Shown: positions 3,809-9,165 of the stretch, piece after piece | How the letters are laid out: each line of letters opens with the position of its first letter | Numbering within the stretch: position 1 is the first letter of the stretch | Assembly: GCA_049512315.1 (NCBI GenBank) | Contig: JBEKXF010000001.1 | Location: 1-64,000 of the forward strand | DNA from: Candidatus Aminicenantales bacterium | GTDB taxonomy: Bacteria; Acidobacteriota; Aminicenantia; Aminicenantales; Saccharicenantaceae | Direction: 5' to 3' | Length of the DNA: 64,000 nucleotides | Notes under the pieces: generated by a model | Databases searched by the model: none | Told to the model about the DNA's origin: nothing | What the model saw: only the letters and a program-made list of their open reading frames with translations | Translations under genes and position numbers: made by a program

Positions 3809-5734
3809 TTACAACTTCTTATTCAGCACGTGCCGGTCTTCGACCCGATTCGTCAGTCCAGTCTTGTCGAAATACTCCAGGATGGCCTGGGCAAACTTCC
3901 GAGACAGGTTGAGCCGGTCCCGGAGTTCGGCGATCGTGACGCTGCCGTGACGCGCGATGAACCCGAGCGCGGCCTCCCGGGCCTCTTCGAGCGCTAGCCG
4001 GTGGTAAGTCACCTTGGCGCCCAGGCGGACGATCTTGCCGTCGCGGATCAGGCTGTCCAGGATATTCTTGAATAAAGACGGGGTTAAAGCAAGCCTCCGC
4101 TGGACCTCTTCCTCAAGGGGCGGAGCGAGCCGGGCGCTGCGGAAAGCCCCTTCGATCCTCGCCGCGATCTGCAGGTCGGCTGGCTTCATGCGGGCCTCGT
4201 GGCCGACGAGCCCGACCTGCGCCTCTTTCCTGAACAGCACGTTCGCCCGGCAGAGGTCATCCACGATGAGCTTCAGAGTCTGGGCCGCGCCCAGCTTGAG
4301 AAATTCTGCCCGGATGTCCGAATAGGGCATGAGCGGCCGCTCCGGGTTGGCCACAAAATATTTCCGGACCTCTGCGGCGACCCCATCCCTGAGGCCTTGA
4401 TATACCGAATGGTGGAGATAGGTTTCGGTCTTCTCATGGTCGATCTTGACCAGCCCTGTCTCCGCCAGCAGCTCCCGCACGGACTCCTCGACCTCGACCT
4501 CGCACTTTCCGAGCTTGAGGGCGGCCTCCTTGACGCTCATGGGCGAGCTTGCCGCTTGGAGAAAGACCTGTTCAGCCGCGTCCCTTGCCTCGCCCCCCAG
4601 CTTCTTCATCCCTTCAAGGACCTGACCGCTAAATCTCTTGTGCTTTTTTGGGTTGGCGTCAAGGATTTGCCCTCCGCCGATGGTCACGAGAGGAGAGAAC
4701 GACCTGATGACGAATCTGTCTCCGGGCAGGGCTACGGTCGGGCTCTCCAGGATGAGCTGGATCATGGCCGAGCCGCCGGGCTCGATCTTCTGGCCCTCGA
4801 GGACCGCCAGGCGCGCGATGACCTCGTCCGTGCCGATGTGGAGCCGGACGCGGTCCCGGTGTTTCACGTCCTTCTCCGCGCTCCGGAGGACGTCGAGGCG
4901 GGCGTCGAGCCGGACGGTGGGGGCGAGCGAGCCCTCGGCGCCCGCAACCTGGCCCCGGCGCAGGCCCTCTTTCTTCAGGTCCTGGAGGTTGATGGCCGTC
5001 CGCTTGCCGATGGCCGAGGCGTCCTTTTTTTCCTTGTGGACCTGGACGCCACGGACCCGGGACCTGAGCCCGTCAGGGAAGATCTCGACCCGGTCGCCCG
5101 CGCGGACCTGGCCGCCGAGCACGGTGCCGGCGACGACCGTGCCGAATCCCTGGATCGTGAAGACGCGGTCGATGGGCATCCGGAAAATCCCGCTGTCCGG
5201 GCGTTTGGCGACCTTCCGGCCGATCTCCTGGAGGACCGTCTTGACGTCCCCGAGCCCCGCTCCCGTGACGGAAGAGACGGGGAGGATGGGAGCACCCTCG
5301 AGAAAGGAGCCCCGGACAAAACTTCGGACCGCGCCGGTGAGCTCGGAGATCCGGGCCTCATCGACAAGATCGCTCTTGGTCAGAGCGACCGCCCCCAGCT
5401 TGATCCCGAGAAGCTGGAGGATGTCGAAATGCTCCCGCGTCTGGACCGAGATGCCTTCGTCGGCGGCGATGACAAAGAGGGCGGCGTCGACGTTGCTCGC
5501 GCCGGCGGCCATAGTCTTGACGAATTTCTCATGACCCGGGACGTCGATGAAGACGATTTGCTTCTCGTAGCCGGGGTCGTCCAGGAAAACGAACCCCAGC
5601 TCGATGGTCATCCCGCGTTCCTTTTCTTCGGGCAGGGTGTCGGGGTCGGTGCCGGTCAGGGCTTTGACGAGGGCGCTCTTGCCGTGGTCGATGTGCCCGG
5701 CCGTCCCGACGATGACGTGGTCTTTCTCAGGCAT
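3809..5734 (-). CDS. selB: Selenocysteine-specific translation elongation factor SelB
   Basis: [39 protein letters not shown]-terminal winged helix [19 protein letters not shown] at 5734 preferred over TTG at 5767. Confidence 0.97.
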
Positions 5735-5756: not shown

Positions 5757-6977
5757 CTATCGGCCAATCATCTTTTCGCCCGGCGCCTTTCTCTTCAGGA
5801 CGATCCGGCCAGGGCCCTTCCGGGTCACGCGCCCGATGACGGTCGCCCGCCGGACGCCCTTTTTATAGAGCGCCGCGAGAAGGGCCGCCGCTTTCGATCT
5901 CCGGACGGCGATCAGGAGCCCGCCCGAGGTTTGGGGATCGTAGAGAAGTGTCTCGAGAGCTTCGCCGGCGCCTTTCTCGATCTTGACGAAGGCGGAGGCG
6001 TAATCCCGGTTACGTTCGACGGCCCCGGAAATGACGCCGTCACGGATGAGGTCCATGACGCCATCAAAAACCGGGATGGCCTCGCCGTAGATCTCGAGGT
6101 CGACGCCGCTCTGGGCGGCGATCTCGCTCAGGTGGCCCGCCAATCCGAAGCCGGTGATGTCGGTGGCGGTCGTGACCCCCGCGGCGGTCATGGCTTCGGC
6201 GGCGGCGCGGTTGAGCTCGGTCATGGAGCGCTCGGCCGCGGCGAGACCTCTCGCCGGGGCTCGTCCGATCTGGCGGGCGAAGCTCAGCGTCCCCGTCCCG
6301 ATGGGTTTCGTCAGGATCAGAATGTCGCCCGGCTTGGCCTTGCTGTTGACCGTCATCTTAGCGGGGTGCACAACGCCGGTCACGGCGAAGCCGAACTTGA
6401 TCTCCCTGTCCTTGATGCTGTGGCCGCCGAGGACGGCCACGCCGGCCTCCCGGAGTTTGTCGATCCCGCCCTGGAGCATCTTGTTCATGATCCGGGGGCT
6501 CAGCCGCTCGATGGGGAAGGCAATGATCGAAAGGGCTGTCAGCGGACGTCCGCCCATGGCGTAGATGTCGCTTACGGAATTGGCTGCCGCGATCTGGCCG
6601 AAGACGTAGGGGTCGTCGACGACCGGGGTGAAAACATCAACCGATTGAACGAGCGCGGTCCGGGCGTTAAGCTTGAAGACGCCGGCGTCGTCGCAGGTGT
6701 CGGACGAGACGAGGACGCGCCGGTCGAAGATCCGGGGCAGGCCGGAGAGGGCCTTCTTCAGGTCCTCCTGGCTGATCTTGGAGGCGCAGCCGGCGTTCTC
6801 GACGAGCGAGGTGAGCGGCACGTTTTCGAGGGCGTCCTCCTCGCGCTCGCCCGAGCAGAGGCAGATGTTTTTCCGCTTGAAGAGGTCGCAGGGGCAGGGC
6901 TCCTTGGGGTTGCAGATGCAGTGGCCGAGCCGGATCGACCGGCCCATGATGCGCTTGCGTTTCTTGTAATCGATCAT
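5757..6977 (-). CDS. selD: Selenide, water dikinase SelD (Cys form) with N-terminal Cys-rich extension
   Basis: [13 protein letters not shown] active site, [58 protein letters not shown]. Confidence 0.96.
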
Positions 6978-8523: not shown

Positions 8524-9114
8524 CTACTTTTTGAGCGACCTGAAAGGAATTTTGCCGAAAATCTCTGGATGGAGGTCGCGGCCCTCCCGGGCGGCCTGAA
8601 CGATGAAGATCGCGACTTCGAATGGCAGGTCCTTCGGCGGCATGCAGGAGGTATTGTCGCAGGCCTGGTAGCTCAGCCTGGCCTTGAGCTTCAGAGGTCC
8701 GGCCGGGATGCCCGCTTTCGCTTTGAGCAGGGCCCCGAGAACCGCTTCGCCCTCGTAGACCATGAGCTCGGCCTGAGAGTAGGCGAAACGGCCGCGATGG
8801 CCGGACGGGTAATAGATCTCGACGACCTCGAGGCCGGGGTTGTCGTCGAAGGCGAGCGTCGTGGGGACCAGGAACTCGTCGAGGGGCGCGTTGTCGTTGA
8901 TGTGATAGCCGGGCTCGACCTTGAGAACGATTGCGGCCTTGAACGTCTCGCCCGGGTGGACGCCGTCCCGCGAGAGAAGCGTTTTGACCTCGATGACCTG
9001 TCCGTCCTGCTGCGCTTTTCCGGCTGAAAAGGCGCAAGATAAGCCGGCGGGGAGGAAGCCGGCAAAGATCAGGGTCAGGAACGGCACGATCTTCTTGGCG
9101 ACGCTTCTATTCAT
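8524..9114 (-). CDS. Exported DsbD N-terminal (Ig-like thiol-disulfide interchange) domain protein
   Basis: Signal peptide, GYHIN, VYEGE, LSYQACDNTSCMPP (Cx4C). Confidence 0.8.
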   Translation of the reverse strand: MNRSVAKKIVPFLTLIFAGFLPAGLSCAFSAGKAQQDGQVIEVKTLLSRDGVHPGETFKAAIVLKVEPGYHINDNAPLDEFLVPTTLAFDDNPGLEVVEIYYPSGHRGRFAYSQAELMVYEGEAVLGALLKAKAGIPAGPLKLKARLSYQACDNTSCMPPKDLPFEVAIFIVQAAREGRDLHPEIFGKIPFRSLKK

Positions 9115-9135
9115 GTTGGGCCGCTTGATCCATCC

Positions 9136-9165
9136 ATTAAACAGGTTGGGCGCCGGGCTTGTCAA
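9136..9165 (-). promoter_or_regulatory. Putative promoter of the dsbD-N/selA/selD/selB unit
   Basis: Minus strand TTGACA-N18-TTTAAT, just downstream of the RRM gene terminator. Confidence 0.45.

Follow-up and report, generated by a model that had tools for sequence, protein, structure and literature searches.

The window, a 64,000-nucleotide stretch of a Candidatus Aminicenantales genome (GCA_049512315.1, contig JBEKXF010000001.1, positions 1 to 64,000), encodes a selA-selD-selB block in which the minus-strand ORF 5757-6977 specifies a 406-aa Cys-type SelD, in a single frame that includes an N-terminal extension. The features of the locus are as follows.

3809..5734, minus strand: selB, Sec-specific elongation factor, directly downstream of selD
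5757..6815, minus strand: body of SelD (selenide, water dikinase), the sole selD of the genome
6777..6788, minus strand: SelD active site, Cys64-Ala-Ser-Lys67, in the Cys rather than the Sec form
6816..6842, minus strand: variable linker, residues 46-54, mean identity 0.77
6843..6977, minus strand: six-Cys head domain, residues 1-45 (helix 4-17, GH-CxC-x5-CPC, helix 31-36, CxC-[AS]GE)
6855..6920, minus strand: Cys20-Cys41 motif, C20-I-C22-NPKEP-C28-P-C30-DLFKRKNI-C39-L-C41
7085..8473, minus strand: selA, Sec synthase, directly upstream of selD
8524..9165, minus strand: DsbD N-terminal-domain protein, upstream of selA, heading the block

In the SelD protein, TIGR00476 matches residues 55-362 at 364 bits (curated cut-off 125), E. 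coli SelD (3U0O) is alignable over residues 52-393 (E 1e-68), and C64, K67, D96, D97, D114, N133 and D137 are invariant in 71 aligned sequences, the nearest relatives being labelled Candidatus Aminicenantales. The genome, 96.6% complete, encodes this one selD and a tRNA-Sec. Searches of the genome for FlpD and FdhA found no Sec-containing client; a UxxC thioredoxin-like candidate selenoprotein with a GG-U-GA-C motif, one among 17 heuristic candidates, is encoded elsewhere in the genome (G000:C10:6568-7017, plus strand) and is a possible client of the Sec machinery. That this SelD makes selenophosphate is suggested indirectly by the neighbouring selA and selB, by the tRNA-Sec and by this candidate. 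Homologs of the DsbD N-terminal-domain protein are present in 25 of 162 related loci.

The original prediction pointed to about 50 extra residues with six Cys in three CxC pairs ahead of SelD, and this is what ORF 5757-6977 (minus strand) contains. The extension comprises 51-54 residues, of which residues 1-45 form the conserved domain, with a basic helix-like segment followed by G18-H19-C20 preceding the Cys motif. All 392 candidates retrieved with residues 1-60 proved to be homologs. Two outcomes that would have spoken against the prediction, variable Cys residues and a true start further downstream, did not materialize: none of the six Cys varies among the 120 top-scoring homologs listed (120/120), and across 161 loci the start codon lies exactly at residue 1 in 125 and within -6..+3 codons of it in 158, which rules out a downstream start. 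An in-frame stop is found no more than 12 codons upstream of the start in 63/161 loci, and the domain shares its frame with the active-site motif of SelD in 161/162 loci, which rules out a separate small gene. Mean identity among the 120 best homologs, which leans high because these are the top scorers, was 0.91 for residues 1-45, 0.90 for residues 55-200 and 0.75 for residues 201-390. Among 46 close loci, pN/pS was 0.081/0.402 in the domain vs 0.097/0.471 in SelD residues 91-200. In an alignment of 90 members, the six Cys, a first loop of 5 residues, a second loop of 8 residues and a His directly before the first Cys were each found in all 90. The extension is thus real and under selection, not a chance reading frame. 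No match to residues 1-60 was found in Pfam or NCBIfam at E<=10, and the head is a domain family absent from both collections; searches of PHROGs gave no match for three SelD heads and one weak match (E 0.15) for a viral copy.

The domain is encoded in about 500 GTDB stretches and heads the SelD of hundreds of related species, most of them uncultured. Pattern scans of GTDB yielded stretches confirmed as relatives in 518/567 and 470/491 cases, and the best 80 of each were fetched; the bacterial set comprised 202 loci, 201 of which were parsed with the motif, giving 162 distinct loci. Cys occupies the SelD active site in 161 of these (one was unparsed) and Sec in none. According to record titles, the domain occurs in Aminicenantes, Planctomycetota, Armatimonadota, Lentisphaerae/Victivallales, Kiritimatiellae, Acidobacteria and Fermentibacteria, as well as in bins titled Eubacteriales that are placed among Aminicenantes in the SelD tree; being a quick construction rooted on a single long outgroup, that tree is not used here to argue for any origin or transfer. 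Within the class of the window genome, 32 of 151 genomes possess SelD. In each of the 29 SelD-bearing genomes sampled from the window's order, the domain immediately precedes the one SelD present; the three from another family lack the domain, one of them having an in-frame TGA. An additional weak match (E 4e-4, 32-residue frame) was taken as noise. Among five genomes checked from other loci, four encode the fused SelD alone and one (G293) also encodes a second, Sec-type SelD; in the latter, the fused Cys-SelD (L327) adjoins a divergent selA and a LysR gene resembling a selenium-associated family, below the cut-off of that family. No free-standing bacterial copies were retained, given that 18 short matches were read as truncated or frameshifted SelD fusions and that all 74 parsed of 75 further loci were SelD fusions.

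Many of these proteins carry an additional domain at the opposite end. A C-terminal CxxC tail, often following a Cys-Cys linker, is present in 66 of 154 full-length homologs and corresponds to Pfam CMD/AhpD in three of four tailed proteins tested (E 1e-13 to 1e-17). The window SelD is without such a tail, and the tail CxxC was lost in some copies (L124, L125). An example of the tailed form (L106:4001-5569), with a Cys-Cys linker and a CMD/AhpD domain (CEPC), comes from Anaerohalosphaeraceae bacterium U12dextr; this genome, not labelled as a MAG, encodes the three-part SelD and may offer a cultured host. Gene neighbours were counted by targeted searches of the 162 loci, an initial neighbour clustering having been dropped because large families merged. 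Within the fetched flanks, selA or selB was found at 91/162 loci, genes for double-cubane proteins or their activase at 45/162 (35 of the 66 tailed forms), and a NapH-like polyferredoxin gene at 29/162; a ferredoxin gene was not a regular neighbour. At six loci (L103, L106, L274, L302, L320 and L335), up to three double-cubane-family genes and an ATP-dependent activase gene lie directly upstream of a three-part SelD, with a NapH-like polyferredoxin gene downstream in several. These operons provide a physical link for the reported co-occurrence of double-cubane proteins and SelD. The window genome has no match to the double-cubane protein at E<=1e-15.

The domain also occurs independently of SelD, in viral contigs. 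All 16 viral matches to the DNA pattern GH-CxC-x5-CPC-x8-CxC encode the same helix-plus-Cys module; 13 are short free-standing ORFs and two are interrupted by in-frame stops when read with translation table 11 (L351 and L344). In L351 (2441-2600, plus strand) the stops are TGA codons where Gly would fit, a hint of another genetic code, as in a TGA-recoding phage. The remaining copy lies inside a 539-residue ORF (L340:2018-3634, plus strand), just after a DEAH motif; judging from its motifs, this ORF probably encodes an SNF2-type helicase, and near-identical modules are free-standing in L339 and L348. A profile search yielded further short free-standing proteins with the module. A looser viral scan without the GH prefix gave mostly low-complexity noise (five true modules by eye among 120 loci), and a motif variant with a 6-residue loop had no matches.

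The original prediction likened the Cys cluster to the catalytic subunit of ferredoxin:thioredoxin reductase (FTR). The CPC-x8-CxC spacing is indeed identical to that of 1DJ7 (C74-C76, C85-C87), and the first loop is shorter, as had been stated. Its length is 5 residues in SelD heads, 8-13 in short viral FTRs and 14-16 in cellular FTRs and FDRs. The claim of kinship is supported indirectly, through the viral proteins, and not by direct comparison with cellular FTRs. The FeThRed_B search that had been proposed for the N-terminal residues gave no match at E<=10, either for residues 1-60 or for 19 family members, and HHalign of the head profile against nine cellular FTR/FDR sequences gave non-significant probabilities of 11-22%. 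The first profile (A1) retrieved no FTR from PDB. With broader head profiles, FTR catalytic chains made up 6/6 and 6/7 of the matches at E<=10 among 177,635 PDB sequences, at E values of 1.8-5.2 that are singly not significant. Two FeThRed_B leads in the ESM Atlas (0.76 and 0.85) were both under the 0.9 bar.

Short FTR-like proteins form a large family in viral contigs (L385-L502), with about 320 stretches estimated, and the literature search found no experimental or functional study of them. A scan for CPC-x3..13-CPC-x8-CxC collected 121 viral loci of the estimated 320; translation gave 67 distinct rows that were not Cys-rich noise, from which 44 were picked by eye, leaving out repeats and near-copies. 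FeThRed_B recognizes 37 of these short viral FTRs at E<=0.1, the lowest E being 5e-14, and the profile built from the 44 aligns with cellular FTR/FDR sequences at 98.9%. The SelD-head profile matches the 44 viral FTRs at an HHalign probability of 94.7%, with a pairwise E of 6e-8 and the six Cys in register (95.0% with the broader profile A5), part of this match being built in, since the viral proteins were gathered by their Cys pattern. For that reason, Cys and the central Pro were held fixed in column shuffles: the real score was 36.2 vs 24.2 +/- 4.4 for the shuffled profiles, and was reached in 1/100, 1/200 and 0/200 shuffles, or in 1/100 when only fused sequences were used. The profile similarity to viral FTRs thus exceeds what the Cys pattern alone provides. 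The signal belongs to the family rather than to single members: against the viral-FTR HMM, Cys-fixed shuffles of the window's own domain did as well as the real sequence (z 0.04), and z exceeded 2 in 13 of 90 members, with free-standing members scoring higher. Taken together, these profile comparisons make it quite likely that the head shares ancestry with FTR; it is not a member of PF02943 as that family is defined.

The genome search with FeThRed_B found a single gene, a separate member of the FTR family on another contig (L064, G000:C13:11844-12098). Its N-terminus bears a rubredoxin-like CxxC...CPxC segment that is found at the other end of the protein, the C-terminus, in the class relatives L057, L058, L060 and L063; a glutaredoxin-like CxxC domain stands in front in L059, L061 and L062.

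AlphaFold2 predicts the head domain with a pLDDT of 93.6 and helices at residues 4-17 and 31-36, positions at which FTR has helices as well. In the model of the full protein (pTM 0.87), the pLDDT is 88-93 in the domain and 66-77 across residues 41-70. Foldseek with a 48-residue model returned no rows from PDB or BFVD, an outcome that speaks neither for nor against an FTR core.

In 1DJ7 the cluster ligands are C55, C74, C76 and C85, the disulfide is C57-C87, and H86 is the His between the last two Cys. Mapped from FTR, the cluster would be held by C20, C28, C30 and C39 of the head, while C22 and C41 would form the redox disulfide. In the catalytic subunit of FTR, the [4Fe-4S] cluster helps reduce a redox-active disulfide (PMC6006212, PMC9025218, PMC7278568). 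We lean towards the head binding Fe-S rather than Zn, and tentatively regard it as a reductase serving SelD, at slightly less than even odds. The specific reading that we prefer, with a rough probability of 0.45, is that the head, with its predicted [4Fe-4S] cluster and disulfide, acts on selenium carried by Cys64 of SelD and reduces it, probably with ferredoxin-level electrons. A ferredoxin-like donor would deliver two single electrons via the cluster, opening the C22-C41 disulfide; C22 would then attack a Cys64-S-Se adduct or oxidised Cys64, and selenide would be freed beside ATP, replacing the thioredoxin step, with H19 as a possible substitute proton donor. Beyond homology, we infer every step of this scheme. 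Apart from the FTR kinship, it draws on the confident model of the head, on the fusion in all 29 SelD-bearing genomes of the order, on the Cys at the SelD site of 161/162 loci and on the CxxC tails. Counting against it are the missing direct matches to cellular FTR, the lack of the first Pro, the small size of the head, the viral copy within a helicase-like ORF and the irregular presence of ferredoxin genes nearby.

The same FTR kinship, that is, the viral-FTR profile match and the shuffles, would also suit a switch descended from FTR, in which an Fe-S cluster or a disulfide makes SelD activity depend on oxygen, iron or redox state with no selenium turnover. In favour of a switch, the domain is tethered 9-20 residues ahead of the Cys64 loop, the first Pro is absent, and much of the ferredoxin/thioredoxin docking surface of FTR is likely missing from a head of 45 residues compared with about 110 in FTR. 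Yet none of the six Cys has been given up, although a simple sensor cluster would have no need for the two that are not predicted ligands, and the second thiol-redox tails of 66/154 homologs point to electron flow. We consider gating without turnover unlikely. Similarly improbable is a structural module binding Zn or another metal, or an interaction module, that resembles FTR in Cys spacing and has no redox role. Free-standing viral copies are consistent with it, and the one that interrupts a helicase-like ORF would fit a metal module of general use; moreover, Pfam, HHalign and Foldseek gave no direct FTR match, and the window sequence by itself shows no excess over Cys-fixed shuffles. Against a purely structural role stand a profile signal above that of the Cys pattern alone, conservation as strong as in the catalytic half of SelD, and the retention of the domain in 29/29 genomes of the order, even though SelD mostly functions without such a head.

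The Cys array might instead serve as a selenium carrier or scaffold, on which selenium would sit, either as perselenide or within an Fe-Se cluster, before its transfer to Cys64 or to double-cubane proteins. The frequency of double-cubane-protein and activase genes near these loci, above all near the tailed forms, argues for such a role, as does the report by Haft and Gwadz (10.1101/2022.07.06.499078), in the part available, that 955/970 double-cubane proteins come from SelD-containing assemblies; there, Se-bridged double-cubane clusters are raised as a formal possibility. However, the window genome has no double-cubane match at the threshold given above, nothing around the free-standing viral copies points to selenium, and FTR-like spacing is needless for carrying selenium. 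We rate this the least probable of the alternatives.

If the preferred reading, reduction of Cys64-bound selenium by the head, is correct, SelD would have a built-in reductant for its selenium substrate, and FTR chemistry would extend down to a 45-residue scaffold. We further venture, more speculatively, that the head could be an FTR-type [4Fe-4S]/disulfide reductase of the smallest size, belonging to a 45-residue family that viruses share; that with it SelD could generate selenide by itself, driven by ferredoxin, in hundreds of anaerobe species; and that the CMD-tailed forms could constitute a one-chain relay from Fe-S to dithiol to selenium tied to double-cubane enzymes. The in vivo selenium donor system for SelD is described as incompletely elucidated in the accessible part of a 2026 review (PMC13188914), and a permanent fusion on the sole SelD of many anaerobes names a candidate for it.

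The architecture is real, conserved and apparently undescribed, and on the profile evidence the head is likely a mini-domain of the FTR lineage. No published description of the head was found in a literature search that excluded most subscription journals. In the sections available, Haft and Gwadz (10.1101/2022.07.06.499078) use neither "fusion" nor "fused", and PMC10418091 describes no SelD architecture. The available text of Mariotti 2015 (PMC4561486) covers SelD fusions to NADH-dehydrogenase-like, NifS and methyltransferase domains and a Plasmodium extension, and states that in prokaryotes the partner is fused N-terminally and the SelD is almost always of the Cys type; other single-species extensions are left unreported there, so an unreported overlap with the head is conceivable. 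Ndh and NifS fusions, with FTR as a separate selenoprotein, are described in the part of Zhang 2008 that was accessible (PMC2398784).

Compared with canonical bacterial SelD (TIGR00476; E. coli 3U0O, Aquifex 2YYE), the window protein has a similar body, with the Cys/Lys and Asp motifs kept, and differs in its added N-terminal extension of 51-54 residues. With the FTR catalytic subunit (PF02943; 1DJ7, 2PU9, 7BZK) and FDR (4TPU), the head has in common the three CxC pairs and a helix ending in Gly ahead of the first CxC. It differs in being fused to SelD, in its length of 45 residues and in the lack of a Pfam match, as well as in its first CxC, where I/V/L/H replaces the Pro of FTR (present in 0/90 heads). 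The invariant His of the heads stands before the first Cys instead of within the last CxC, where His was found in 1/90 heads, 13/44 viral and 1/9 cellular FTR-family sequences, and its loss in heads is thus not unusual. The short viral FTRs (CPC-x8..13-CPC-x8-CxC) resemble the heads in their small size, in the G-x-C before the motif (Gly at -2 in 35/44, and in 90/90 heads), in an aromatic residue or Met at +3 after CPC and in the frequent replacement of the His; unlike the heads, they keep an N-terminal LNP segment, the first Pro and a GLY/LYV tail. As in the SelD fusions covered by the available parts of PMC4561486 and PMC2398784, the head would be an N-terminal redox or selenium-handling partner on a Cys-SelD; it differs from them in being far smaller, in not being among those listed there, and in that head-bearing forms often add a second, C-terminal CMD/AhpD domain.
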